Positions 1-40,873 of a stretch of 40,900 bases of DNA are shown piece after piece (within the stretch, counting starts at the first letter, position 1; each line of letters starts with the position of its first letter). Where the stretch lies: the UHGV virus genome UHGV-0205053; one strand, given 5' to 3'. Source of the DNA: a virus. A program made the translations under genes and the position numbers. Under the pieces are notes generated by a model that was not told the origin of the DNA, did not search any database, and saw nothing but the letters and a program-made list of their open reading frames with translations.

Positions 1-12
1 ATCAAGGGATAT

Positions 13-492
13 ATGATGAAAAAATTCTTGCTAGCCGGTTTAGTCGTCATGCTTACTGGTTGTGCAGCAACAAAGAATGTTGATGTCGTTGCAACTGAAA
101 AGGCTCAGGGGGATCGAATTGTTGCCTTAAATTCTGCCAGGTCACCATGGGTTTACGAGATTGAAAAACGGTTAAAACAGAAAGGCTTTACCGTGCTTCG
201 AAGTGCAAGCCAACAAGTGACGGTAGAAAAACAATCCAATAGCACTACCGGTATTTATAACGAAGCTACTGCGCGTTATGTTCTGAACTTGAATGGTTTC
301 GCTCCAAATAACGCAATGACTCGTTGCTATGGTGGCGGGTATAATTTTGACTACATTGATGCTGAGCTAATTGACGTGAAAAAGAACCAGACAATGTTCC
401 ACTATTCTAACTCTGGTTACTCTGAAAATTGCCCGCCATTGTCAGGAACAATTTTCACTGATATCACCAATCTTGTTGCAGACTCCTGGTGA
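13..492 (+). CDS. Lipoprotein (signal peptide + lipobox LTGC); function unknown, possible superinfection-exclusion or receptor-masking moron
   Basis: N-terminus MMKKFLLAGLVVMLTGC reads as a classic lipoprotein signal with lipobox. It sits immediately after the last ejection-protein gene if the genome is circularised. I recognise no family. Confidence 0.55.
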   Translation: MMKKFLLAGLVVMLTGCAATKNVDVVATEKAQGDRIVALNSARSPWVYEIEKRLKQKGFTVLRSASQQVTVEKQSNSTTGIYNEATARYVLNLNGFAPNNAMTRCYGGGYNFDYIDAELIDVKKNQTMFHYSNSGYSENCPPLSGTIFTDITNLVADSW

Positions 493-531
493 TTTTCATG
501 TGACATGTCACAAAGGCCGCAGAGCGCCCAC

Positions 532-558
532 AAAAAAGCCCGCGACGCGGGCTTAAAT
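532..558. terminator. Bidirectional hairpin terminator (GCCCGCG-A-CGCGGGC) with an A-run on one side and a T-run on the other
   Basis: Sequence is aaaaaaGCCCGCGaCGCGGGCttaaat. On the minus strand the hairpin is followed by TTTTTT, so it terminates the 553..909 gene. It also lies downstream of the plus-strand lipoprotein gene. Confidence 0.55.
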
Positions 559-909
559 GTTGACTTTCTTTGGCGCTATTGCGGCTATTGATATCATGAA
601 TCCAGTCAGCATAGCCAGTATCAGAGGTATGATGAACGCATCCGATGTTCTAAGAGGGTTCTTCATGTCACATAGCATAACGAGGAAAAAACCACTCGTT
701 GCGAATGTAGTTGATGAATACACCTCGTTCAGTTTGTACTGAAGGTTAACAACGGAAAAGTTACCAGTCTCTTTTGAGAAAAAATCCCATATCAGGTGGA
801 TTACTATATACACAAGGCACAGGATACAATAAAAGATCGCCAGTTCCTGTGCCGTTTGTGGATTGTACCAATGTGATACTTGAGCGATCTCAGGCTGCAC
901 TGCCAGCAC
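553..909 (-). CDS. Small multi-pass membrane protein (3-4 TM helices); candidate immunity or partner protein for the upstream peptide
   Basis: Three to four strongly hydrophobic helices (FYCILCLVYIVIHLIW, FFLVMLCDM, IIPLILAMLTGFMISIAAIA). GTG start overlaps the 3' end of the 890..1090 ORF by 20 nt, suggesting translational coupling. Region is low-GC. Confidence 0.4.
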   Translation of the reverse strand: MLAVQPEIAQVSHWYNPQTAQELAIFYCILCLVYIVIHLIWDFFSKETGNFSVVNLQYKLNEVYSSTTFATSGFFLVMLCDMKNPLRTSDAFIIPLILAMLTGFMISIAAIAPKKVNI

Positions 910-1090
910 TCATTTTTTTAAAAATGTAGGTTCCTGCCATAGCAAGGCCACCGGTAATAGCGAAAAGATAGGCCACACCAGTAGTAACTGTGAACGCAGG
1001 AATGATCATAGACAGGCCGCCAGATAGAGCAAAACCGCTGCCTGCCCCACCAATAATGGCTTTCATTAAAGTTATGATGTTCAGTTCCAT
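890..1090 (-). CDS. 66-aa glycine-zipper hydrophobic peptide (GxxxG-rich, two predicted TM segments); bacteriocin-like or membrane-toxin-like
   Basis: Strong SD (GAGGAGAG) 5 nt upstream of the ATG. A sigma70-like promoter (TTGGCT-17-TAATAT) lies upstream. Sequence AIIGGAGSGFALSGG...ITGGLAMAG shows a Gly-zipper pattern. A possible short GG-ending leader (MELNIITLMKAIIGG) is speculative. Confidence 0.5.
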   Translation of the reverse strand: MELNIITLMKAIIGGAGSGFALSGGLSMIIPAFTVTTGVAYLFAITGGLAMAGTYIFKKMSAGSAA

Positions 1091-1115
1091 AATCTCTCCT
1101 CAGTAAACATCGCGT

Positions 1116-1130
1116 TTACCCATGGGGTAA
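1116..1130. promoter_or_regulatory. TTACC-CATGG-GGTAA palindromic operator overlapping the TSS of the Gly-zipper peptide promoter
   Basis: Perfect 5-5-5 inverted repeat. The same motif recurs at 10 or more sites in the window. It lies directly downstream of the TAATAT -10 element on the minus strand. Confidence 0.45.
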
Positions 1131-1285
1131 TATTACATCACTGATACGTGATAGCCAATTATTTTATAGCCGCATTGCCCTTTAAACAAAGGCACTTCCT
1201 TGTGCCAGCAGCCTCAGAACGCAGCTGTGTTTTTGGTGATGTACTGCGCGTGGGGCAGGTGTCGGCATAGAGCGTGATGCGCTTT

Positions 1286-1525
1286 TCACTTCCGCATTTT
1301 GAGGAGAATGAATACCACAATTAAAGAAAAAACTAGAAGTGGAATGCCATAACCACCTGATGGTGAAAATAACATATCTATATGCGAAGTATTGCTAACC
1401 ACAATTTCTGGAGGTGGGGTTTTACCTTTTGGTGGTGGGACATCAAACCCTGTTGGTTCTGGCAGGACGTTGCCAGAAGGAACATAACCGTTTTTGTATT
1501 CATCAGGTGTTGAGAAAACGGGCAT
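1286..1525 (-). CDS. 79-aa protein: N-terminal 32 aa homologous to the N-terminus of the 963-aa ejection protein (37982..40873), fused to a C-terminal TM anchor
   Basis: MPVFSTPDEYKNGYVPSGNVLPEPTGFDVPPP aligns with MPVYSSPEELSNGFTPAGNVLPEQTGFDVPLP. Good SD (AAGGAA) 8 nt upstream. C-terminus GYGIPLLVFSLIVVFILLKMRK is a TM helix with a positive tail. DNA identity is about 70 percent, so this is not a recent duplication. Confidence 0.5.
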   Translation of the reverse strand: MPVFSTPDEYKNGYVPSGNVLPEPTGFDVPPPKGKTPPPEIVVSNTSHIDMLFSPSGGYGIPLLVFSLIVVFILLKMRK

Positions 1526-1542
1526 GAATTATTCCTTGCAAA

Positions 1543-1896
1543 TCATATGGTTTTGTCGACCTTTTCATGTAATTTCACCAGCTCTGATCTTAAGAGCACC
1601 AATGGTGTCATTGCATCGACTATCGCGATAGTCAGTTTATCAAATTCTCTCTGCCACTCTTCACTTTTGCCATCTTCAGGGAGTGATTTCGCCAGCGCCC
1701 GATAACGCTCTACCAGTTCTTTGTGACTGCCAATGGCTACGGCTGGGGCACCAGAAAGCGCATCCTCAATCATTTGCACGATCTCTGAGTTCATGGAACG
1801 TCCGTTGCTTTTGGCTCGTTCAGCAACCGCATCACGCATCCCATCAGGGAATCTGAGGTTGAACTTATCCTGCATCTGGCTTGGGTATTTGCTCAT
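1543..1896 (-). CDS. mnt: Mnt/Arc-family ribbon-helix-helix repressor (Mnt-like, 117 aa)
   Basis: FNLRFPDGMRDAVAERAKSNGRSMNSEIVQMIEDAL matches the Arc/Mnt RHH signature (compare P22 Arc FNLRWPREVLDLVRKVAEENGRSVNSEIYQRV). Divergent from the arc-ant operon. SD AGGTGA. Confidence 0.7.
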   Translation of the reverse strand: MSKYPSQMQDKFNLRFPDGMRDAVAERAKSNGRSMNSEIVQMIEDALSGAPAVAIGSHKELVERYRALAKSLPEDGKSEEWQREFDKLTIAIVDAMTPLVLLRSELVKLHEKVDKTI

Positions 1897-1930
1897 AAGT
1901 CACCTGGAAAAATTATTCAAAATTATTATG

Positions 1931-1990
1931 GGGCCAAGTTGACATATTGCGCAATGGTGTTAAATTAATATCAGGTGTCAAGTTGGCCCC
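1931..1990. promoter_or_regulatory. Divergent Pmnt/Pant promoter-operator region flanked by a near-perfect 15-bp inverted repeat
   Basis: GGGGCCAAGTTGACA ... TGTCAAGTTGGCCCC (14/15 inverted). A TTGACA -35 hexamer faces each direction. Contains the 14-mer AAATTAATATCAGG that is repeated before cro. Confidence 0.5.
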
Positions 1991-2002
1991 AAGGAGGCTG
2001 AA

Positions 2003-2176
2003 ATGCAAAAATCACTTTGTACCGAACGTAAGAACATCAAATTAAACCTTAGGCTTCCAGAGAGGCTGGACCAAGAAATACGTCGCATGGCTGAAATGGA
2101 CTGCATTTCAATAAACTCTGCGATTGTGAGATTGCTAGCGAAGGGGGTGAGAGAGGAAAGGCTAAATGTGCAGTAA
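2003..2176 (+). CDS. arc: Arc-like ribbon-helix-helix repressor (57 aa); not in the ORF track because it is under 60 aa
   Basis: Strong SD AAGGAGG. KLNLRLPERLDQEIRRMAEMDCISINSAIVRLLAKG matches the Arc RHH signature. Sits between mnt and ant as in P22 immI. Confidence 0.7.
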   Translation: MQKSLCTERKNIKLNLRLPERLDQEIRRMAEMDCISINSAIVRLLAKGVREERLNVQ

Positions 2177-2246
2177 AAACAGTGAAGCCCAACGGTGTCC
2201 AGACCGTCAGGCTTCTAATTTGTCAGCAACTATCAGGTAAACCGAC

Positions 2247-3197
2247 ATGAATACTTTAGCACTGAAGCAAAATCATTGCACCATCAGCGTACCATTCCAC
2301 GGCACTGATCTGTTTGTGGTTAACCACAACGGCGAGCCATACACCCCTATGAAGCCGATTGTTGAAGGCATGGGTATGGACTGGGCTTCACAGTTTACGA
2401 AGATGAAGAAGCGTTTTAAATCAACCATTGTGGAAATCACAATGGTTGCCAGTGATGGTAAGTCTCGCTCGATGATCTGCCTTGCACTTCGCAAGTTGGC
2501 CGGCTGGCTCAATACCATCAGCCCAAACAAGGTTAAACCAGAAATCCGTGACCGCGTGATCCAGTATCAGGAAGAATGTGACGATGTGCTCTATGAATAC
2601 TGGACGAAAGGCCAAGTGGTTAACCCGCGCAAGGCTGCGAAGACTCAGCCTGGTAAAATCACCGCTGACCAGCAGTACGCCATTAAAGAAATGGTCATGT
2701 CTCGTGGACAGGCTCTTCCTAAGGATAAACAGGCTAAGGCCATTATCACAATGTGGTCTGCGTTAAAATCGCACTTTGGTGTTTCCTACAAAGATATCGA
2801 TGCCGGGCAGTTCAATGAAGCTGTGTCGCTCGTTGCCAGGATCCCCCTCGAAGGCGAATTAATCACCGCAAGAGAGATCTTCCTTGCTGAGGAAAAATTG
2901 AGTGCCGAAGTAGTGGAAGCTATCCGTGGGGTGGTAAAAAATAATACGAAGCGATATGAGGCATCTTTGAAGCCAGGCTACCGCGAGCACATCCATTCAC
3001 CTGAGGGCGTCCTTGGCTTGACGGAGCATTCACTGCTGATGAATCTCCTTCGTCAAATGGAAGATGATGGGCATGACGTCTCCGGGGCAGCAGCTGAGTT
3101 GACAACTATTTTCTGCTATGTGACAGGGGTTAGGCGCTGCATCAGCGACATTACTACCAACGCGCAGTATATTCTTAAGCAGGTGAAAGATTTTTAG
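2247..3197 (+). CDS. ant: Antirepressor Ant (AntA-like N-terminal domain plus C-terminal domain)
   Basis: N-terminus VPFHGTDLFVVNHNGEPYTPMKPIVEGMGMDW is typical of phage antirepressor N-terminal domains. Positioned after arc as in P22 immI. Confidence 0.7.
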   Translation: MNTLALKQNHCTISVPFHGTDLFVVNHNGEPYTPMKPIVEGMGMDWASQFTKMKKRFKSTIVEITMVASDGKSRSMICLALRKLAGWLNTISPNKVKPEIRDRVIQYQEECDDVLYEYWTKGQVVNPRKAAKTQPGKITADQQYAIKEMVMSRGQALPKDKQAKAIITMWSALKSHFGVSYKDIDAGQFNEAVSLVARIPLEGELITAREIFLAEEKLSAEVVEAIRGVVKNNTKRYEASLKPGYREHIHSPEGVLGLTEHSLLMNLLRQMEDDGHDVSGAAAELTTIFCYVTGVRRCISDITTNAQYILKQVKDF

Positions 3198-3199
3198 CA

Positions 3200-3640
3200 A
3201 TGGAAGGGCCGAGCATTCGGCCCATTCTTGAGGATCAGAACGTGAATAACCAGATTAAAGACCTTTGCTTCAAAGATAACGAATCAGCATTTGAATACGC
3301 GTGTAAGTATTGCACAACTGACATTGCAGAAAGACAAGGGCTTCTGGCGCTTGTTATTACGGATCAGGAACCAGATGGCGATGGTAACGCCTTATATGCA
3401 GTAAGGGTTTCATCCAATGACGGTGGATTTGTCGTTCCGGCTATTTTTATGGCAGCACAAGCTGATTTAGGCGCCTTAGTAAAAGGAGACCTTGTTATCT
3501 GGGTGCCATCACAGTATTCGGACGAAATGGCAAAAACGTTAGGCGATCCGAGAAAGGGATGGATGGGGTATTTATCAGCGAAAGTTGAACCAAAACTAAC
3601 TAAGTCAGATGGATGGGGAATTCAGGTCCGCTACATCTAG
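3200..3640 (+). CDS. Hypothetical protein co-transcribed with ant
   Basis: ATG lies 3 nt after the ant stop codon. No family recognised. Confidence 0.45.
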   Translation: MEGPSIRPILEDQNVNNQIKDLCFKDNESAFEYACKYCTTDIAERQGLLALVITDQEPDGDGNALYAVRVSSNDGGFVVPAIFMAAQADLGALVKGDLVIWVPSQYSDEMAKTLGDPRKGWMGYLSAKVEPKLTKSDGWGIQVRYI

Positions 3641-3647
3641 TATACTA

Positions 3648-3672
3648 GGCCGCTCATGCGGCCTTTTCTTTT
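3648..3672 (+). terminator. Rho-independent terminator (GGCCGCtcatGCGGCC plus TTTTCTTTT)
   Basis: GC hairpin followed by a T-run at the end of the arc-ant operon. Confidence 0.55.
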
Positions 3673-3931
3673 ATGTTGTTTCCTGCCTCAGCTTTTCCAC
3701 GCAGTAATCGAGATGCATCTGCAGATCCTTCATGGACATCTGCGAGCTGGTGACATAGTTCACCAGGGCAGTCAGCTCTGCCATCGGGCCATCAACATTA
3801 AAGCCATCCTCACCCAACTGGCGCAGCAACGTCATCAGGTGTGAATCTTCAACAAGGGAGCGGACGCCTCCCGGCGTGTGTATGCGTTCGGCAAAGCCTT
3901 TTTCCAGCGGGTGATGATACTGACGTTGCAT
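3671..3931 (-). CDS. Small stand-alone paralog of the Ant C-terminal domain, preceded by a LexA box; candidate SOS-induced antirepressor or modulator
   Basis: ERIHTPGGVRSLVEDSHLMTLLRQLGEDGFNVDGPMAELTAL aligns with the Ant C-terminus EHIHSPEGVLGLTEHSLLMNLLRQMEDDGHDVSGAAAELTTI. SD GGAGAAT precedes the ATG at 3931. The ORF track starts at 3949. Confidence 0.5.
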   Translation of the reverse strand: MQRQYHHPLEKGFAERIHTPGGVRSLVEDSHLMTLLRQLGEDGFNVDGPMAELTALVNYVTSSQMSMKDLQMHLDYCVEKLRQETT

Positions 3932-3950
3932 CTGATATTCTCCATGCATT

Positions 3951-3970
3951 CACTGTATGTATGTACAGTA
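3951..3970. promoter_or_regulatory. LexA (SOS) box cACTGTATGTATGTACAGTA
   Basis: CTGT-N8-ACAG with an AT-rich 8-nt spacer, a near-perfect fit to the E. coli LexA consensus TACTGTATATATATACAGTA. It lies about 20 nt upstream of the 3671..3931 gene. Confidence 0.6.
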
Positions 3971-4007
3971 GCAAAAGTCCTAATGACTATCCAGCACGAA
4001 TTGCTAT

Positions 4008-4022
4008 TTACCTAAAAGGTAA
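4008..4022. promoter_or_regulatory. TTACC-TAAAA-GGTAA palindromic operator between the LexA-regulated gene and the tailspike
   Basis: Perfect 5-5-5 inverted repeat of the recurring motif. Confidence 0.4.
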
Positions 4023-4126
4023 TAACTTCTGTGATTGTTATTCATTCAATTCATATAAGGTTTGCCAGGTAATAAACTGTCCAGATGATGCACGCGCGCC
4101 GGGCGCTGCTTTACAGGAGACAGGCC

Positions 4127-6553
4127 ATGACGGTATCAACCGTAGTTGACCATAACGATTACACCGGGAACGGCGTTACGACATCCTTCCCGTACACCTT
4201 TCGCATATTCAAGAAAACAGATCTGACCGTATCGGTTGTCGACCTGAGTGAAAACATCACGGTGCTGGTTCTGGACACTGACTACACGGTGACGAATGCC
4301 GGAGGCTATAACGGCGGCAGCGTGGTGCTCACCGCCCCGCTGACGAACGGCTGGCAGATCTCCATTGCACGTGAACTGGAGCCAACGCAGGAAACAGACC
4401 TGCGCAACCAGGGCAAGTTCTTCGCCGAGGTTCATGAAGACGCATTCGATAAACTGACGATGCTCATCCAGCAGGCATACAGCGTATTCCGTCTGGCGCT
4501 GCGGAAGCCATCGAGCATAGCGAACTGGTACGACGCACTGAACAACTACATCCGTAATCTGCGCGACCCTCGCGACCCCCAGGATGCAGCTACCAAGAAT
4601 TATGTTGATACGCTGGCGAGCGGGAACTTTAACCGCACTCTGCGAACCCCTGAAAACATCCCATCACTCCCAGGTGCTGCAACCAGGGCGAACAAAATCG
4701 TTGCCTTCGATAACTCCGGGAATCCAATTGTAACGTTACCTCCATCTGGCTCTGCATCAGACGTTCTTATTGAACTGGCAAAACCTACTGGCTCTACTTT
4801 GATCGGCGGCTCTGTTTATGTGGTCGATTCATTTTCAGCTGCCCTTGCTGCGAATGCAGGACAGTCAAAGTACATCATGACGCGTGGGCACCATGTTATC
4901 GGCATTGGGGCAGCGACTTATTTTAGTGATGGTACAACTGGCGCTCCATCAACTGGCAATGAGCTTAAATTTTTCGATGTGACCGGAAAGGGATGGTATC
5001 TTCGTCACGATGGCCGCATTGATTGTCGTCAATTCGGCGTTGTGGCGGATGGAAGCGATGAAACTACGAAGTTGCAATTATGGTTGGATTGCTGCGCTGC
5101 GGCGAAGGCAGAGGCATATATCCCTGCGGGGTTGCGACCAGCTGCAATCGGCATCGTTATAAACTCTACACACAACGGACTGCAATTTAAGTTCGATGGT
5201 TTCCTTAAGTTTTTTGGCAGCGGAAACACACCCATAAACAAACCGGCACATATCAACACTGGTGCCTGCTTCTGCCTTTATCTTGATGGTGTGTTTGATA
5301 TTTCTGGTGTTATTCGCATGGACGGCAACCGGGCGGACAAACTCAACCTGGAACAGGTTCATTGCATTGGTTTGTTTGGAGGCGGAAATCATAACGTAAG
5401 TTATGAGTTTAAAGAATGTCAGGGTGATGGTTTATATATTAGTCAGTTAAATGGAAATGCAAATTCTGCAATAGCTGAAAATATTATCATACCGTCTTTC
5501 AGATCATTTAACTCTGATTACTTTGGCAGAAATGCGCTGTCAGTTATCTCTGTTAATGGTTTAAAAATTGGCACTTTCGTATCCATCAAGCATGGCGGAC
5601 TTATCAATGCCGTTACTCAGCCCTGCGCTCTTGATATAGAACCTAATTACGGGTATCAAACGTGCAATAACATACAGATTGATAGCTACTACGCAAAATC
5701 CTGCGGTACAGGCTTCACTATTTTCGGCAAGGTGAACAATGGGAATTACAACGTTCGCAATGTATCCATCTCTAAGATGGAAATCGAAATGGAATATGTA
5801 GCCGCTAACAATAACAAAATCCGTGGGGCGATGCTGATGGGAGTTGATGGCTTGTATATCGGAAGCGCACAGGTTCGCTGCCTGTCAAACTATACCGAAA
5901 ACATCCCAGTCGGCGTCCAAATTGACTCATGCTATAACGCAGATATAAATTTCTCCACTGAGAGATTCTATCAAGGTGCTGCGGTTGGAGTTTACGGCTG
6001 GAGTGAAGTTGGTGGTGTTGCGAAAGTAGTCAATGCAAAAATATCTGTAACCCCAAGAATATTTCAACGCGGAGCCACTATCGGTGATGTTAACGGGTTA
6101 GATTTTACTCTTAGAGGGTTTACTCCAACGGCGATGTCATCTGGTAGCGATGTGGGACTTGTCCAAACAATTCAGGCAGGTGCTGTTGGTTCGTCAACAG
6201 CAGTAAAATCAGCTCGTCTATCGGTGTCAAGTGGTCCTGGTGCTGCTATTACATGGGGAATTTTCTGCTCAAATACCAATATTGAGAGGGATTCCTGTGT
6301 TATACAGGATTCAGACTTATCTGTTATCGCGCACAATGGTACGACAGCCAATAGACTGATCTCCACGGCAAACTTCCAAAAGAGGAACATAGCCGGTGTC
6401 ACGCCGAAGGGTGGGGCTGACACCATCACAGGCACTAATATCTGGGGTGTTGGGGATGTGGTCAACGACCCAACATCTCCAGCGGCAGGTGGTTACATAG
6501 GTAAAGTGTATACATCTGCCGGGTGGAAATCATATGGTGCTATAGCCAGCTAA
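4127..6553 (+). CDS. Tailspike or tail fiber: T7 gp17-like N-terminal particle-binding domain plus C-terminal parallel beta-helix (pectate-lyase-like depolymerase)
   Basis: The N-terminus (YTGNGVTTSFPYTFRIFKKTDLTVSVVD...EDAFDKLTMLIQQ) follows the T7 gp17 N-terminal pattern. The repetitive beta-helix sequence is typical of O-antigen or capsule depolymerases. SD AGGAGA precedes the ATG at 4127. The ORF track starts at 4085. Confidence 0.8.
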   Translation: MTVSTVVDHNDYTGNGVTTSFPYTFRIFKKTDLTVSVVDLSENITVLVLDTDYTVTNAGGYNGGSVVLTAPLTNGWQISIARELEPTQETDLRNQGKFFAEVHEDAFDKLTMLIQQAYSVFRLALRKPSSIANWYDALNNYIRNLRDPRDPQDAATKNYVDTLASGNFNRTLRTPENIPSLPGAATRANKIVAFDNSGNPIVTLPPSGSASDVLIELAKPTGSTLIGGSVYVVDSFSAALAANAGQSKYIMTRGHHVIGIGAATYFSDGTTGAPSTGNELKFFDVTGKGWYLRHDGRIDCRQFGVVADGSDETTKLQLWLDCCAAAKAEAYIPAGLRPAAIGIVINSTHNGLQFKFDGFLKFFGSGNTPINKPAHINTGACFCLYLDGVFDISGVIRMDGNRADKLNLEQVHCIGLFGGGNHNVSYEFKECQGDGLYISQLNGNANSAIAENIIIPSFRSFNSDYFGRNALSVISVNGLKIGTFVSIKHGGLINAVTQPCALDIEPNYGYQTCNNIQIDSYYAKSCGTGFTIFGKVNNGNYNVRNVSISKMEIEMEYVAANNNKIRGAMLMGVDGLYIGSAQVRCLSNYTENIPVGVQIDSCYNADINFSTERFYQGAAVGVYGWSEVGGVAKVVNAKISVTPRIFQRGATIGDVNGLDFTLRGFTPTAMSSGSDVGLVQTIQAGAVGSSTAVKSARLSVSSGPGAAITWGIFCSNTNIERDSCVIQDSDLSVIAHNGTTANRLISTANFQKRNIAGVTPKGGADTITGTNIWGVGDVVNDPTSPAAGGYIGKVYTSAGWKSYGAIAS

Positions 6554-6558
6554 ACATT

Positions 6559-6587
6559 GAGGGTGGAGATCCACCCTCACTTATATC
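6559..6587 (+). terminator. Hairpin GAGGGTGGagatCCACCCTC followed by a U-rich tract
   Basis: Perfect 8-bp GC-rich stem immediately after the tailspike stop codon. Confidence 0.5.
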
Positions 6588-6599
6588 ATGCTAGTTTTT

Positions 6600-7040
6600 T
6601 TAAAAAATTAGGATGAATGGAAACAGCAAATAGGCAATAACTTCCGTTGATAAAGACCACGCCGACTCAATAATTCCATTACCTGTTACAGATTGAGCAA
6701 AGATAATATTGCAAACGTAGGTGTAAAAAGAGCGAGCCTGATCAGTCTTGCTTGTGAAAAATATGAAAACTATGCTTACTGCAAAGAAGTAAAGAGGGTA
6801 AATCCTGGTGAATCTATTATATAAAAACTTCATATAGTTATTTTCACCCACCTTGCTGATGAATTTTTCTTTGTAGACGTAGCACATTATAAATCCACTT
6901 AGAACAAAGAATAGATCAACAGCTAAGTATCCATTTCTTATAAAATCTGAACTCCACCCCATTGGATTAATGTGGTAAAACATAACATATATGGCAAATA
7001 TGCCCCTAATTCCTGTTAAAGCTTTAATTTCTTTATTCAT
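6600..7040 (-). pseudogene. 3'-truncated acyltransferase-3 family (OafA/Oac-like O-antigen acetyltransferase) remnant in an AT-rich island
   Basis: N-terminal motifs LTGIRGIFAIYVMFYH and DLFFVLSGF are the acyltransferase-3 signature. Only 146 aa are present against a full length above 300 aa. The ORF ends at the tailspike terminator. Region is low-GC. Confidence 0.55.
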
Positions 7041-7391
7041 GTTTCAAACCCAAAGCCTAACGCTTGTGAAATAAAAATAGTATTGTAGCGTATTTTTTGA
7101 TTTGGCATGGATATGCCATGCAAAAAACAATCTCATGTTTGCATTTCTTTTTCAAAATATTTCCCTAAGGAACCAGTAGAAAGGATTTCTGGCACTCTCC
7201 ATGAGCGAAGCTGAGGTGAGAGAGGAAAAGATGAGCAAGAAGTATTGTTAAAGATCCTTTTAAAATGGATAGCGCACAAGCATACACCAAGTACACCCCA
7301 ATGAATGATCGTGTTTGTGACATCTATCGATGTGGACCTGAAGAATAACTTAAGCACTTTTTCATCCGTAAAATTCAAAGCCTCACTTTAT

Positions 7392-14585: not shown

Positions 14586-15176
14586 TTACTCTTGCGTTTT
14601 ACCGTTCTGAACAATCACGAAATCGACGTAGCTCTCGATCTTACTTTTCTCGCTCTCAGGTAACAATGCGTAGCGGGCCCGGTCGTAATGAATGGTCGCC
14701 GGGTCGCGGGGATGGATGAGCAGTTCATAGCCGCGGCGCCCGAACGCGCTGGCGATCGCCTCCAGGGTGGAGATAGAAACGCTAACCTCGTTGTTCAGCA
14801 TGCGGTTGATTGTCGCCTGGGCAACGCCGGACGCTTTCGACAGCTTGCCCTGGGAGGACAGGTCGCGGTTGTTTTGCATCCACAACTCGAGGTTATGCGC
14901 CGCCAGCTGGCCAATGTCGGAAGGGGTGATTTCTTCCTGGGGGATGGCAACGGCAGATAATGAGTGGTCGATGTCCAGCCAGTTGGTAGGCTTGTTCGCC
15001 GCTTTCTCAAGTTTTCGGGCAACAGTATCGCCGACAACCTTCTGACCGCGGGCCCAGCGGTTAACCAGGTTCGCCTGAGTGCCCAGTTTTTCCGCCAGAC
15101 GAGTCTGCACCCCGTTAAAGTCACGGTCGATGATATCGTTAATATTCTGCCTGCGGATATCCTGAATACTTTTCAT
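14586..15176 (-). CDS. CI-like lysogeny repressor with tandem HTH domains and no S24 peptidase domain
   Basis: Two XRE/CI-like HTH segments (GVQTRLAEKLGTQANLVNRWARGQ and LSKASGVAQATINRMLNN). Divergent from a Cro-like gene. No Ala-Gly/Ser/Lys autocleavage module. Confidence 0.55.
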   Translation of the reverse strand: MKSIQDIRRQNINDIIDRDFNGVQTRLAEKLGTQANLVNRWARGQKVVGDTVARKLEKAANKPTNWLDIDHSLSAVAIPQEEITPSDIGQLAAHNLELWMQNNRDLSSQGKLSKASGVAQATINRMLNNEVSVSISTLEAIASAFGRRGYELLIHPRDPATIHYDRARYALLPESEKSKIESYVDFVIVQNGKTQE

Positions 15177-22043: not shown

Positions 22044-22080
22044 CGTGTCACGACGTGTTGACTAAATCCTCACATGATTA

Positions 22081-22100
22081 TACTGTTTAAATGTACAGTA
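22081..22100. promoter_or_regulatory. LexA (SOS) box TACTGTTTAAATGTACAGTA
   Basis: Perfect CTGT-N8-ACAG with TA flanks. Lies 20 nt upstream of the 22121 ATG (SD GAGGT). Confidence 0.65.
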
Positions 22101-22120: not shown

Positions 22121-22450
22121 ATGGGCTTTCCATCTCCGGCAGCAGACTACGCAGAAGCATCTCTCACCATCACCAGCCTTTGCGGCTTCGACGGCAATTG
22201 TCGCGCCATCGAGACGTCAGCGGGCTATGCAATCATCAACGTTGCCAACAAACCAGATCCGGGTGACACCGTGCTGATTTCGTATTGTGGCCGCACGGAG
22301 TTCGCCATTGTCCAGGGAAAGGCGCTGATCACTCCGGAAGGTGAAGCACTCGAAGGCGAGGCGCTGGAAGACACGACAGTGCATGGCGTGGTTACTCACT
22401 TCCTGAACCGTGTTGGCCGCCAGGACGACGAACCAATACCAGTCATGTAA
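22121..22450 (+). CDS. UmuD'-like S24-fold protein lacking the catalytic Ser; begins at the UmuD cleavage-site equivalent; LexA-regulated
   Basis: The N-terminus MGFPSPAADY equals the UmuD' N-terminus (UmuD is cleaved at C24/G25 to give GFPSPAADY...). Conserved blocks PGDTVLIS, EFAIVQGKAL and TVHGVVTHF follow the S24 beta-fold. The GDSM Ser motif is replaced by SAGYA. Confidence 0.55.
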   Translation: MGFPSPAADYAEASLTITSLCGFDGNCRAIETSAGYAIINVANKPDPGDTVLISYCGRTEFAIVQGKALITPEGEALEGEALEDTTVHGVVTHFLNRVGRQDDEPIPVM

Positions 22451-37982: not shown

Positions 37983-40873
37983 TGCCTGTGTATTCCTCGC
38001 CAGAAGAACTGAGCAACGGATTTACTCCTGCTGGCAATGTTCTGCCAGAGCAGACAGGGTTTGATGTGCCTTTGCCTGAAGGAACCAACCCGGAGCCGCA
38101 GCAACCAGAACCATCGGTATGGGGCGCCGCCTTCCGCCAGAATAACCTTCTGGCCGAGATGTTCCGCCCGGCCAAGCAGTTTGAGTCGGTAGAATGGTAT
38201 AACCCTTATGCTGATAAAACCGAGCTGCACGGGTACGAACAATGGGGATCTGCTTTTGCTGATTCCCGTTCACCGGAAGAAACTGCCTGGCTTAAACAGC
38301 AGATTGACGACGAAAACGAGGACCGTCGGGTACTTTCAGAGGCGGGCGGGGAGGGTGTCCTGGCCAGTATTGCCGCCGGGGTTGTCGACCCGGTTACAGT
38401 CGCTTCGATGTTTATTCCCGGTGCTCAGGGCGGTACAGTGGCCCGTATCGCGTCACAGGCTGCTATCGGTGCAGCTGCAACAGCAGCGAGCGAGGTTGCG
38501 CTGAACAACCAACAGATCACCCGCACGTGGGGGGAGAGCGCTTCCCACGTCGCCGCCGGTGCGTTGATGAGCGGTGTATTTGCGGCTGCCGGTGCTGCGC
38601 TTTCGCCATCTGTCCGCACTGCGGCCACGCGTGAAGTGGCTGATGCGCTCGATAATATGAGTATCACGTCAGCGACGGACACGGCTGCTGCCTCGCTTCC
38701 CGAAGGTGGCAGCGTCGGCGCGGCGCGAATCAGTGAGGCCACGCTCGAGGATCTCACCCCGGCAGCTGGCGGACCGGTCGGTAAACTGGCACGTAAGGCA
38801 GGGAGCTATCTGACACCGTTTACCCGCCTGATGGAGTCACCGTCTAAAACCTCCCGCCGCACCGCGCTTGAGCTGGCAGAGAATAACTACACACTGCAGG
38901 GCAATGCCCGCGGCATTGAGACACCTATTGCGGCGGAAACCCGTGTTCGCGGGTGGCGTCGTGAAGAAGCTGCTGTCGTGGTGACCAACAAGCAGGCCTA
39001 CAGCCAGTATAAAGCCGCCGGGGGCGACCTGAGTTTTTCACAGTTCCGTGAGGAGGTAGGTAACGCCATGCGCAGCGGTGATGTGCATGCTAATCCGGTG
39101 GTGCAGGAAGCGGCGCAGGCAATGCGCACCGTTGTTAATCGGGTGAAAGTGGCACAGCAAAAGCTTGGCCTGTTGCCACCTGACGAGGAACTGAAAGCCA
39201 TCGGCCAGGAGAGTTATTTCCCTCGCGTGTACAAAGTCGGCAAGATTGTCAACGAGCGTGATAAATTCCGCGACATGCTGGTTGACTGGTGGTCGCGTGG
39301 TGAAAAAACCATGTCCCGCGAAGAGGCGGAAATTACGGCCGATGCCACGATTAATAAAATTGTCGGCGCAAAAATTCCCCAGGATTTCGCAAACGTCTTT
39401 ATGGTGAAATCGGCAGGAAGCACCCGGGCGCGTACGCTCAGTGTTCCAGATCGCCTGATGAAAGATTATCTGGAGAGTGACGCCAACTATGTGTTACAGC
39501 GACACATTCGCGAGGCATCGGCAGAGGTTGAGCTTACCCGTGCATTCGGTAACAAATCCCTGGAAAAGCAGCTCAAGGATATTCAGGACGAATACGATGC
39601 GCTGATGCGCCAGAATCCCAAAGACCAGGCAAAACTGGCGAAAGCCCGCGATAACGATATCCGGGATATCACAGCGCTACGAGACCGCCTGGCGGGCACC
39701 TATGGCATGCCTGACGATCCATCATCATTTTTCGTGCGCGCTGGTGCGTTTCTACGCAGCGCTAACTTTGTCACCAAGCTGGGCGGTATGACCGTTTCCG
39801 CTATTCCTGATCTTGCGCGCGGTGTGATGGTTAACGGGTTTGGCAATACCATGCGCGGCTACTCTTCGCTGATCACCCGATCACCTGCATTCAAGGCCAG
39901 CCGGGCCGAGCAGTTAAAAATGGCCGTCGGGCTGGAAACCATCCTCCACACCCGCGCACGCACGATGGGTGACCTTGTGGACAGTTCCGCCCGGACAACG
40001 GCAGTGGAAGCGGGTATGGAGCGTGTTACCGATGCGTTCGGCAAGCTCACGCTGATGGGTCACTTCGATGACATGAACAAATCGGTAAACGGTATGATCA
40101 CGTCCGACGGTATTCTTTCCGGCGCATTCACCGGCCGCCGCCTGGCTAAGCTCGGCATTAACGATAATATGGCCGCACGCATCCGCGGCGAATTTGAAAA
40201 ACACGGCGAAGTAATCGATGGCTGGCATATCGGCAATTTTGAAAAATGGGACGATCAGCACGTTGCAGGCGTTTTCCAGTCTGCGGTGCTCAAAGACGTT
40301 AACAATACCGTTATCACTCCGGGGATCGGCGATACACCACTGTGGGCCAGTACGCCGCTGGGTAAAACCATCTTCCAGTTTAAATCCTTCGCCACTGCAT
40401 CCTATAACCGAGCGACGTTGGGCGGCCTGCAGGAGGGAACCGGTCAGTTTTATTACGGCACCGCATTCCAGATTGCATTGGGAGCACTGACGTACGCGCT
40501 TAAACAGTCTGCAAACGGTAAAGAGGTAGACTGGTCGCCGCAGAAACTTGCTATTGAGGGGATTGACCGATCAGGTATCCTCGGTCCTCTGATGGAATAC
40601 AACAATATGGCTGAGAAGGCTACCGGGGGTATGGTTGGCCTTGGGGCGCTACTCGGAACCGGCACGCAGTCGAGATATGCCAGCCGTGGTTTTATTGGCT
40701 CTGCCCTTGGGCCAACGTTCGGTCTGCTGGACACTATTACTGATGTGACTGCCGGGGTGCTGAATGGCGACGCTGGTGACCGGGTTCTGCATAACGTGCG
40801 TACACTTCTTCCTGGCAACAACCTGTTCTGGATTGCGCCATTGATAAACCAAGTGGATCCAGGGTTAAGGTAA
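37982..40873 (+). CDS. Large internal virion or ejection protein
   Basis: 963 aa, last gene of the morphogenetic module. Its N-terminal 32 aa are copied in the 79-aa protein at 1286..1525. Confidence 0.55.
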   Translation: MPVYSSPEELSNGFTPAGNVLPEQTGFDVPLPEGTNPEPQQPEPSVWGAAFRQNNLLAEMFRPAKQFESVEWYNPYADKTELHGYEQWGSAFADSRSPEETAWLKQQIDDENEDRRVLSEAGGEGVLASIAAGVVDPVTVASMFIPGAQGGTVARIASQAAIGAAATAASEVALNNQQITRTWGESASHVAAGALMSGVFAAAGAALSPSVRTAATREVADALDNMSITSATDTAAASLPEGGSVGAARISEATLEDLTPAAGGPVGKLARKAGSYLTPFTRLMESPSKTSRRTALELAENNYTLQGNARGIETPIAAETRVRGWRREEAAVVVTNKQAYSQYKAAGGDLSFSQFREEVGNAMRSGDVHANPVVQEAAQAMRTVVNRVKVAQQKLGLLPPDEELKAIGQESYFPRVYKVGKIVNERDKFRDMLVDWWSRGEKTMSREEAEITADATINKIVGAKIPQDFANVFMVKSAGSTRARTLSVPDRLMKDYLESDANYVLQRHIREASAEVELTRAFGNKSLEKQLKDIQDEYDALMRQNPKDQAKLAKARDNDIRDITALRDRLAGTYGMPDDPSSFFVRAGAFLRSANFVTKLGGMTVSAIPDLARGVMVNGFGNTMRGYSSLITRSPAFKASRAEQLKMAVGLETILHTRARTMGDLVDSSARTTAVEAGMERVTDAFGKLTLMGHFDDMNKSVNGMITSDGILSGAFTGRRLAKLGINDNMAARIRGEFEKHGEVIDGWHIGNFEKWDDQHVAGVFQSAVLKDVNNTVITPGIGDTPLWASTPLGKTIFQFKSFATASYNRATLGGLQEGTGQFYYGTAFQIALGALTYALKQSANGKEVDWSPQKLAIEGIDRSGILGPLMEYNNMAEKATGGMVGLGALLGTGTQSRYASRGFIGSALGPTFGLLDTITDVTAGVLNGDAGDRVLHNVRTLLPGNNLFWIAPLINQVDPGLR

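Follow-up and report, generated by a model that had tools for sequence, protein, structure and literature searches.

The window analysed here is the whole stretch of 40,900 nucleotides (nt) of UHGV virus genome UHGV-0205053, which reads as the complete genome, circularly permuted, of a temperate podovirus of the epsilon15-like (Uetakevirus) group. The small minus-strand gene at 3671..3931, encoding 86 amino acids (aa), is very probably ant, the SOS-inducible antirepressor gene of this phage. Its product is orthologous to the Ant protein of phage SPC32H, it lies in the conserved ant slot of this phage group, and it is preceded by a conserved LexA box. The LexA-Ant-Rep switch of epsilon15-like phages was known before, and what the window contains is clearly orthologous to it. 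The following elements make up the ant locus.

3671..3931, minus strand: ant, predicted 86-aa SOS-inducible antirepressor, orthologue of SPC32H Ant (PDB 5D50 chain E, tblastn, phrog_450, synteny)
3939..3943, minus strand: ribosome-binding site GGAGA, 7 nt before the ATG at 3931, with GGAG invariant in the alignment of related phages
3951..3970, no strand assigned: LexA (SOS) box, 17/20 to the consensus, conserved in relatives
3965..3993, minus strand: predicted sigma-70 promoter of ant, from sequence and conservation in a nine-phage alignment

The 86-aa protein was identified by a PDB sequence search and by tblastn, not by family libraries, where Pfam gave only a sub-threshold match to DUF724 and NCBIfam gave no match. 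In the PDB sequence search (phmmer), the single match was the 86-residue 'Anti-repressor protein' of 5D50 chain E, with residues 1-86 aligned to residues 1-86 (E 9e-45). By tblastn, the protein is 81.4% identical over 100% coverage to the product of SPC32H_020, a gene annotated as 'ant: anti-repressor protein', and 98.8% identical to its homologue in Enterobacter phage BUCT554. It also matches the small-Ant family phrog_450 (E 1e-42). Invariant positions of Ant are Y5, L9, H18, G22, V23, L26, E28, S30, L32, M33, L35-R37, D42, G43, V46, G48, A51-L53, Y59 and V60. A tblastn search of phage genomes (E <= 1e-3) returned 35 records with Ant, all of them epsilon15-like phages of Salmonella, E. coli, Enterobacter and Klebsiella, including SPC32H, SPC32N, epsilon15 (gp19) and phiV10 (p24). 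The comparison with epsilon15, phiV10 and SPC32H proposed in the initial annotation therefore gave homologues in all three, each in the same genomic slot.

The 86-aa start agrees with the crystallised 5D50 protein and with the start conserved in related phages. Mechanical calling of open reading frames (ORFs) gives a 92-aa reading from the ATG at 3949, which was rejected: it has no ribosome-binding site, it starts 2 nt past the LexA box, and its ATG is missing in the Klebsiella homologues. Several 126-127-aa database entries of the Ant family look like this gene with its start called too far upstream. In PHROGs, phrog_450 is labelled 'unknown function'; the family has no Pfam or NCBIfam model, and it is a 'hypothetical protein' in most GenBank records (epsilon15, phiV10, SPN1S, BUCT554 and others).

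Judged by its end-to-end match to the 86-aa Ant of 5D50, the 86-aa protein is a complete, canonical Ant of epsilon15-like phages and not a fragment. The initial annotation had regarded it as only the C-terminal domain of a full-length antirepressor. That framing has to be inverted, and the 316-aa protein encoded nearby, described below, appears to be the derived form. Because the small protein aligns end to end with SPC32H Ant, the dominant-negative and adaptor roles that had been considered for it are unnecessary, and orthology to a complete Ant points to the real SOS antirepressor.

The 20-mer at 3951-3970 (CACTGTATGTATGTACAGTA) has 3 mismatches to the enterobacterial LexA consensus TACTGTATATATATACAGTA, and the CTGT-N8-ACAG motif seen in the initial annotation upstream of the small gene is exact at 3953-3968, inside this box. 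Read on the ant strand, the box is TACTGTACATACATACAGTG, which is almost identical to the strong E. coli sulA box. Near-consensus LexA 20-mers occur twice in the window versus 0.00 expected (none in 100 dinucleotide-preserving shuffles), so the box is not a random occurrence. It lies upstream of the ant ATG (3931) at a distance of 19 nt.

The intergenic region between ant and the tailspike gene was aligned for nine phages, namely the window, BUCT554, SPC32H, TL-2011b, phiV10, epsilon15, Tyrion and two Klebsiella phages. The LexA half-sites (TAC-TGTA ... ATACAGT) are invariant and the AT-rich spacer between them is variable, which is the pattern to be expected of a LexA site. CTGGATAG, TG-TAC-TGT and GGAG are likewise invariant, and the flanks diverge. 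The SPC32H box (TACTGTATGTTTATACAGTG) aligns with the window box at an equal distance to the ATG (19 nt). The box is also conserved before the stand-alone ant genes of 15 other fetched loci, which come from Salmonella, E. coli, Enterobacter and Klebsiella phages. All 15 have a LexA-like 20-mer with 2-5 mismatches upstream of the ant ATG; the spacing to the ATG is 16-19 nt in 14 loci and 34 nt in the remaining, most divergent locus.

The predicted ant promoter consists of a -35 element TGGATA (3993..3988), a 17-nt spacer and an extended -10 element TGcTACTGT (3973..3965). With the promoter assigned in this way from conservation, the LexA box would cover the -10 element and the predicted transcription start. 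The initial annotation had allowed for an ORF without a ribosome-binding site; GGAGA is found 7 nt before the ATG at 3931, and the geometry of promoter and ribosome-binding site is conserved in the aligned phages.

The gene order around ant is conserved as well. The slot is formed by the last injection gene, then ant, then a divergent tailspike gene, and it is also present in SPC32H, epsilon15, phiV10, Tyrion, BUCT554, Klebsiella phages and prophage loci (L010-L016). In SPC32H, ant has the last large virion/injection gene on one side, and the divergent tailspike gene followed by an O-antigen acetylase gene on the other. The nearest phage record at the ant locus of the window is BUCT554 (93% nucleotide identity), and the likely tailspike start is at 4127, about 150 nt from the LexA box.

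The presumed target of Ant is the repressor Rep, which was identified together with a family of palindromes.

14586..15176, minus strand: rep, 196-aa repressor, presumed Ant target (5D50 chain A match, HTH_3, no S24)
4007..4023, no strand assigned: Rep-operator-type palindrome (TTTACCTAAAAGGTAAT), between the ant promoter and the tailspike gene
1115, 4007, 7390, 9536, 14451, 14513, 15231, 15279, 17609, 17671, 22472, 22492 and 25947: 17-mers of the type ATTACC-N5-GGTAAT

Rep matches the 'Repressor' of 5D50 chain A over residues 1-192 (E 2e-47), so that Ant and Rep are both orthologous to the crystallised SPC32H pair. Consistent with the two helix-turn-helix (HTH) domains and the missing S24 autocleavage domain given in the initial annotation, Pfam finds HTH_3 in two stretches of Rep, along with a weaker N-terminal HTH-type match, and gives no match to Peptidase_S24. 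Rep is 96% identical to the BUCT554 repressor and 41.5% identical to SPC32H Rep by tblastn (about 41-45% overall). Ant was found in 35 phage records and near-full-length Rep in 36, and the two sets of records are essentially the same.

The palindrome ATTACC-N5-GGTAAT (at most 2 mismatches) occurs 13 times in the window versus 0.88 expected. Many of these sites precede gene starts, including 2 in the rep-cro gap and 2 just before the terminase operon, and the GenBank record of epsilon15 annotates the site homologous to 4007..4023 as a repressor binding site. These palindromes are probably Rep operators spread over the genome. If so, direct control of several operons by Rep is implied, with the ant/tailspike intergenic region among them.

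Within the phage group, Ant is conserved to a far higher degree than the Rep that it targets. Identities to the window for Ant and Rep, respectively, are 99% and 96% in BUCT554 (tblastn), 86% and 67% in Tyrion, about 80% and 75% in E. coli phages, 78-81% and 41-42% in SPC32H and epsilon15, and about 60% and 45% in Klebsiella phages. Such a difference would fit an antirepressor that is active on heteroimmune relatives. As a speculation, Ant may act as a master key on heteroimmune Uetakevirus prophages, in the manner of Gifsy-type cross-talk, where the antirepressors act on heteroimmune relatives (PMC3121763).

The genetics of the LexA-Ant-Rep switch in epsilon15-like phages were reportedly worked out by Kim and Ryu in 2013 (J Virol 87:11775), and the structure of SPC32H Ant-Rep is said to have been described by Kim et al. 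in 2016 (PNAS 113:E2480; PDB 5D50 and 5D4Z). In several Salmonella phages, according to the passage of the review PMC7380047 that cites Kim and Ryu 2013, LexA self-cleavage allows an antirepressor to be made, which makes direct protein-protein contact with the lytic repressor and thereby inactivates it. The passage of PMC9638917 that cites Kim et al. 2016 states that the DNA-bound form of SPC32H Rep is a tetramer, which is broken when an Ant tetramer binds two Rep dimers. From the published SPC32H work, we infer LexA binding, Ant-Rep binding and the disassembly mechanism for the present phage. In the lysogen, host LexA would occupy the box at 3951-3970, cover the extended -10 element and the predicted start, and keep ant silent. 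DNA damage would activate RecA and cause LexA to cleave itself, upon which ant would be transcribed, with translation beginning at GGAGA-ATG. By analogy to the SPC32H pair, an Ant tetramer would bind two Rep dimers and break the DNA-bound tetramer of Rep, a repressor without an autocleavage domain. Rep would then leave the ATTACC-N5-GGTAAT operators, and the lytic genes would be expressed. This scheme agrees with the initial annotation, which had expected SOS induction to need a LexA-derepressed antirepressor: the box lies on the promoter of the small gene, Rep has no autocleavage domain, and the route is established in epsilon15-like phages.

Some points weigh against the assignment of 3671..3931 as the SOS-inducible ant gene. 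LexA binding, ant expression and Ant-Rep contact in this phage are deduced by orthology. The ant promoter was not flagged by a generic promoter scan, and its -35/-10 assignment depends on conservation. Rep is about 41-45% identical to SPC32H Rep, so a conserved Ant-Rep interface is assumed. One different reading is that the 86-aa protein is not the inducer and instead modulates the 316-aa antirepressor as a dominant-negative subunit or an adaptor. The two proteins do share a homologous domain of about 80 aa (39% identity), and mixed oligomers are conceivable, as the SPC32H homologue is reported to be tetrameric in a passage of PMC9638917. However, none of the 35 related phage records found lacks the small ant, and SPC32H, epsilon15 and BUCT554 each show one tblastn place and no large fusion gene beside ant in the stretches examined. 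In SPC32H, it is the small protein alone that was crystallised as the partner of Rep. Over the last 22 residues, which belong to the long C-terminal helix, the two forms share only 9% identity, a point against ready co-assembly. A modulator role is therefore highly improbable.

Practically no weight is given to the idea that CTGT-N8-ACAG matches by chance or belongs to the divergent tailspike gene and not to ant. The bare 16-mer is indeed the weaker evidence, with 2 in the window versus 0.54 expected and at least 2 in 6 of the 100 shuffles, but for the full 20-mer the expectation is 0.00. The distance from the box to the ant ATG is fixed in 14 of the 15 other loci though their tailspike genes differ, and the box lies downstream of the conserved ant -35 element and about 150 nt from the likely tailspike start. 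It was also considered whether ant is gated by Rep in addition, through the palindrome at 4007-4023 and a half-site at 4068-4074. In that case Ant would lift the repression of its own gene, closing a positive feedback loop, and cleavage of LexA by itself would allow only partial expression. The 13 palindromes (0.88 expected) flank rep and precede several operons, and the ant-proximal palindrome and the TATTACC half-site are kept in 9 of the 9 aligned phages, with the repressor site annotated in epsilon15. On the other side, the operator is centred about 57 nt upstream of where ant transcription is predicted to begin, which places it outside the -35/-10 region, and it is at least as well placed for the plus-strand tailspike promoter TTGCCA-16-GATGAT at 4062-4089. 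To our knowledge, no publication shows Rep to control ant, and such additional gating is considered unlikely.

With ant read as the SOS antirepressor gene, the 316-aa protein encoded to its left appears to be a second antirepressor of mosaic composition. It is accompanied by a control region that resembles immI of P22.

2247..3197, plus strand: 316-aa predicted mosaic antirepressor, with P22_AR_N and a helical middle (aa 1 to about 200), a linker of low confidence and, at the C-terminus, a copy of the Ant domain (aa 235-314, nt 2949-3188)
1543..2176, no strand assigned: P22 immI-like control region, with Mnt-like and Arc-like genes, a promoter and an inverted repeat
1543..1896, minus strand: Mnt-like Arc-fold gene (Pfam Arc)
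2003..2176, plus strand: Arc-like gene (Pfam Arc)

The N-terminal part of the 316-aa protein is P22_AR_N (PF10547, residues 14-124, E 1.5e-46), and P22_AR_C (PF10548) has no match in the protein with Pfam. Its single PDB match is 5D50_E, to residues 235-314 (E 3.3e-13), and phrog_450 matches residues 233-315. The similarity between the 86-aa Ant and this C-terminus, put at about 45% identity in the initial annotation, is real (BLASTP E 1e-18), but the identity is lower, with 31/80 residues (39%). It amounts to 40% over the last 70 aligned residues, 52% over a 50-residue core and 9% over the last 22. An AlphaFold model of moderate confidence (mean predicted local distance difference test, pLDDT, 67.8; predicted template modelling score, pTM, 0.39), used for domain boundaries only, gives an N-terminal domain, a helical middle domain, a low-confidence region at 205-252 and a C-terminal helical unit at 253-315. 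The pLDDT is below 50 at residues 205-219 and 234-252.

In a large protein database, canonical antirepressors with both PF10547 and PF10548 (309 aa) are 77-78% identical to the 316-aa protein, but over its first 63%. Full-length relatives with PF10547 alone come from Enterobacter hormaechei (97%, the closest), Salmonella, Klebsiella, Citrobacter and E. coli. Among phages, relatives are found in 425 records, of which 3 reach at least 80% coverage; the rest (Shiga toxin (Stx) phages, CUS-3 and others) match residues 1-210 only. The 3 high-coverage records are two copies of the TL-2011b genome record and one Klebsiella phage, and TL-2011b carries the same rep and small ant genes as the window. 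Judged by its domain make-up, the 316-aa protein is a derived form with a P22-type body, in which P22_AR_C was exchanged for a diverged Uetakevirus Ant domain.

The two Arc-fold genes are divergent and match Pfam Arc with E 1.9e-19 and 3e-4. A promoter, TTGACA-16-TAAATT (1939-1966), lies between them and is flanked by a 16-nt inverted repeat (1929-1944 / 1976-1991). LexA control of the 316-aa antirepressor was considered and rejected, as no LexA-like 20-mer (at most 6 mismatches, core at least 5/6) was found anywhere in 1-3670. As read from these elements, the mosaic is a second antirepressor that is differently wired, under Mnt/Arc-type control and not under SOS control. It probably also targets Rep.

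The Ant domain is reused in related prophages. A profile built from stand-alone and fused copies was searched against 1.84 billion representative proteins and gave only 55 clusters, mostly of 80-95 aa. The domain is also found C-terminal to Bro-N (P0123, P0149 and P0165; TL-2011b gp46; phiV10 p23/p22), C-terminal to AntA (P0122) and C-terminal to Phage_pRha (P0128 and P0129). In TL-2011b the domain occurs three times, once as the small ant and twice in fusions, to P22_AR_N (gp42) and to Bro-N (gp46), with the fusions within 4301-5245 and 6421-7116 of its locus (L003). In phiV10, the small ant is accompanied by a Bro-N/Ant-domain fusion that is split by a frameshift into p23/p22 (4565-5244 of locus L004). 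All of the P22_AR_N, AntA and pRha fusions that were looked up are in Uetakevirus-like prophages, between the last injection gene and the small ant/tailspike. Every fusion whose surroundings were examined is within a few kilobases (kb) of a stand-alone ant in a Uetakevirus-like genome, and the AntA, Bro-N and pRha fusions are often directly downstream of the small ant.

The confinement of the Ant domain to one phage group and one locus supports, without proving, that this domain is the Rep-binding part. We tentatively propose, with more doubt than confidence, that the Ant fold of about 80 aa is a portable 'Rep-targeting warhead' carried on at least four unrelated bodies (P22_AR_N, Bro-N, AntA and pRha), so that in this phage Rep would be attacked through two independent circuits. 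One circuit would be the LexA/SOS circuit acting through the 86-aa Ant, and the other would be the Mnt/Arc-controlled circuit acting through the 316-aa mosaic. The two proteins might also interact as mixed tetramers. The mildly new point is this modular reuse of the Ant domain, including the P22_AR_C-to-Ant swap; no description of it was found in the searchable literature, which is not proof of absence.

The mosaic antirepressor belongs to a 3.6-kb accessory module (1-3640) between the last injection gene, which ends at 40873, and ant. The module comprises genes for a 159-aa protein whose N-terminus is lipoprotein-like (13..492) and, at its right end, for a 146-aa protein, together with three small hydrophobic ORFs and the Mnt/Arc/Ant set. 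The gene of the 146-aa protein (3200..3640, plus strand; phrog_9944), to which no function was assigned, starts directly after the mosaic ant stop. A megablast search with the left-hand module (1-3670) gave no match in 50,697 phage records, and no more than fragments in E. coli genomes. Between the convergent gene 3200..3640 (plus strand) and ant (minus strand), a GC-rich hairpin (AGGCCGCTCATGCGGCCT) with a T-run at 3647-3664 is a clear terminator for the plus-strand gene, and the T-tract is missing on the ant strand.

In the rest of the genome, terminase, portal and injection genes occupy 22.5-40.9 kb, and the tailspike gene, an acetyltransferase remnant, lysis genes, the integrase gene and the immunity region follow. 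The O-antigen acetyltransferase gene at 6600-7040 (minus strand) is a remnant, its 146-aa ORF matching positions 2-143 of the 326-position Acyl_transf_3 profile. It ends 47 nt past the tailspike stop and may be a scar of tailspike module exchange.

The box before ant was rightly called the 'second' LexA box, as the other near-consensus box of the window is at 22081-22100 (TACTGTTTAAATGTACAGTA). A -35 element TTGACT (22059-22064) precedes that box, and a -10 element TACTGT lies inside it. The box is 20 nt upstream of a gene for a 109-aa protein (22121..22450), which matches phrog_3469 'UmuD-like protein' (E 5.5e-44) and has no Pfam match. Placed directly ahead of the small terminase gene, it is a second phage gene under SOS control.

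There is an annotation gap here, and the Ant function can be transferred with confidence to the phrog_450 family. The exchange of P22_AR_C for an Ant domain on a body that is 77-78% identical suggests that, in large phage antirepressors, the choice of target repressor lies with the C-terminal domain. Prophages in which the Ant domain is present in two or three copies under different regulation would offer a compact model for multi-signal induction and prophage cross-talk.

By every feature that can be tested from sequence, the locus belongs to the Ant/Rep/LexA system known from SPC32H. Ant has 86 aa in both phages and is 81% identical end to end, its gene takes the slot between the last injection gene and the divergent tailspike gene, and the LexA box is 19 nt before the ATG in both. 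Rep belongs to the same family, with about 196-199 aa and no S24 domain, and is about 41-45% identical although Ant is 81% identical. In contrast to this phage, SPC32H, epsilon15 and BUCT554 are without the 3.6-kb module (1-3640) that carries the P22 immI-like Mnt/Arc/Ant set.

The 316-aa protein resembles the P22 immI system in having P22_AR_N and 77-78% identity to canonical P22-type antirepressors over its first ~200 residues. Its gene is likewise preceded by a divergent Arc-fold pair and a promoter flanked by an inverted repeat. In P22, immI also lies just upstream of the tailspike gene. The difference from P22-type antirepressors is that P22_AR_C is missing and the last ~80 residues are an epsilon15-type Ant domain. 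The presumed target is therefore the Uetakevirus Rep and not a lambda-type C2 repressor.

A non-cleavable repressor combined with a small, LexA-boxed antirepressor gene outside the immunity region is the logic of known LexA-controlled antirepressors (PMC3121763), and Tum of 186, GfoA/GftA of Gifsy and AntC of N15 share this logic with the present ant. The coliphage 186 record annotates a LexA site (p95) upstream of tum. Homology to 186 Tum (146 aa) was rejected, as BLASTP of the 86-aa protein gave no alignment at E <= 100, and 'homologous to Tum' in the review PMC7380047 is therefore taken as functional analogy. No Gifsy or 186 record was among the 35 phage records matched by tblastn. Tum, GfoA/GftA and AntC are functional analogues of this Ant, not family members. 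The fusions resemble the shuffled antirepressors built from Bro-N, AntA and pRha/KilA-type domains with variable C-termini, as the Ant domain is their C-terminal piece. The difference is that here the C-terminal piece is itself a free-standing, experimentally characterised antirepressor.

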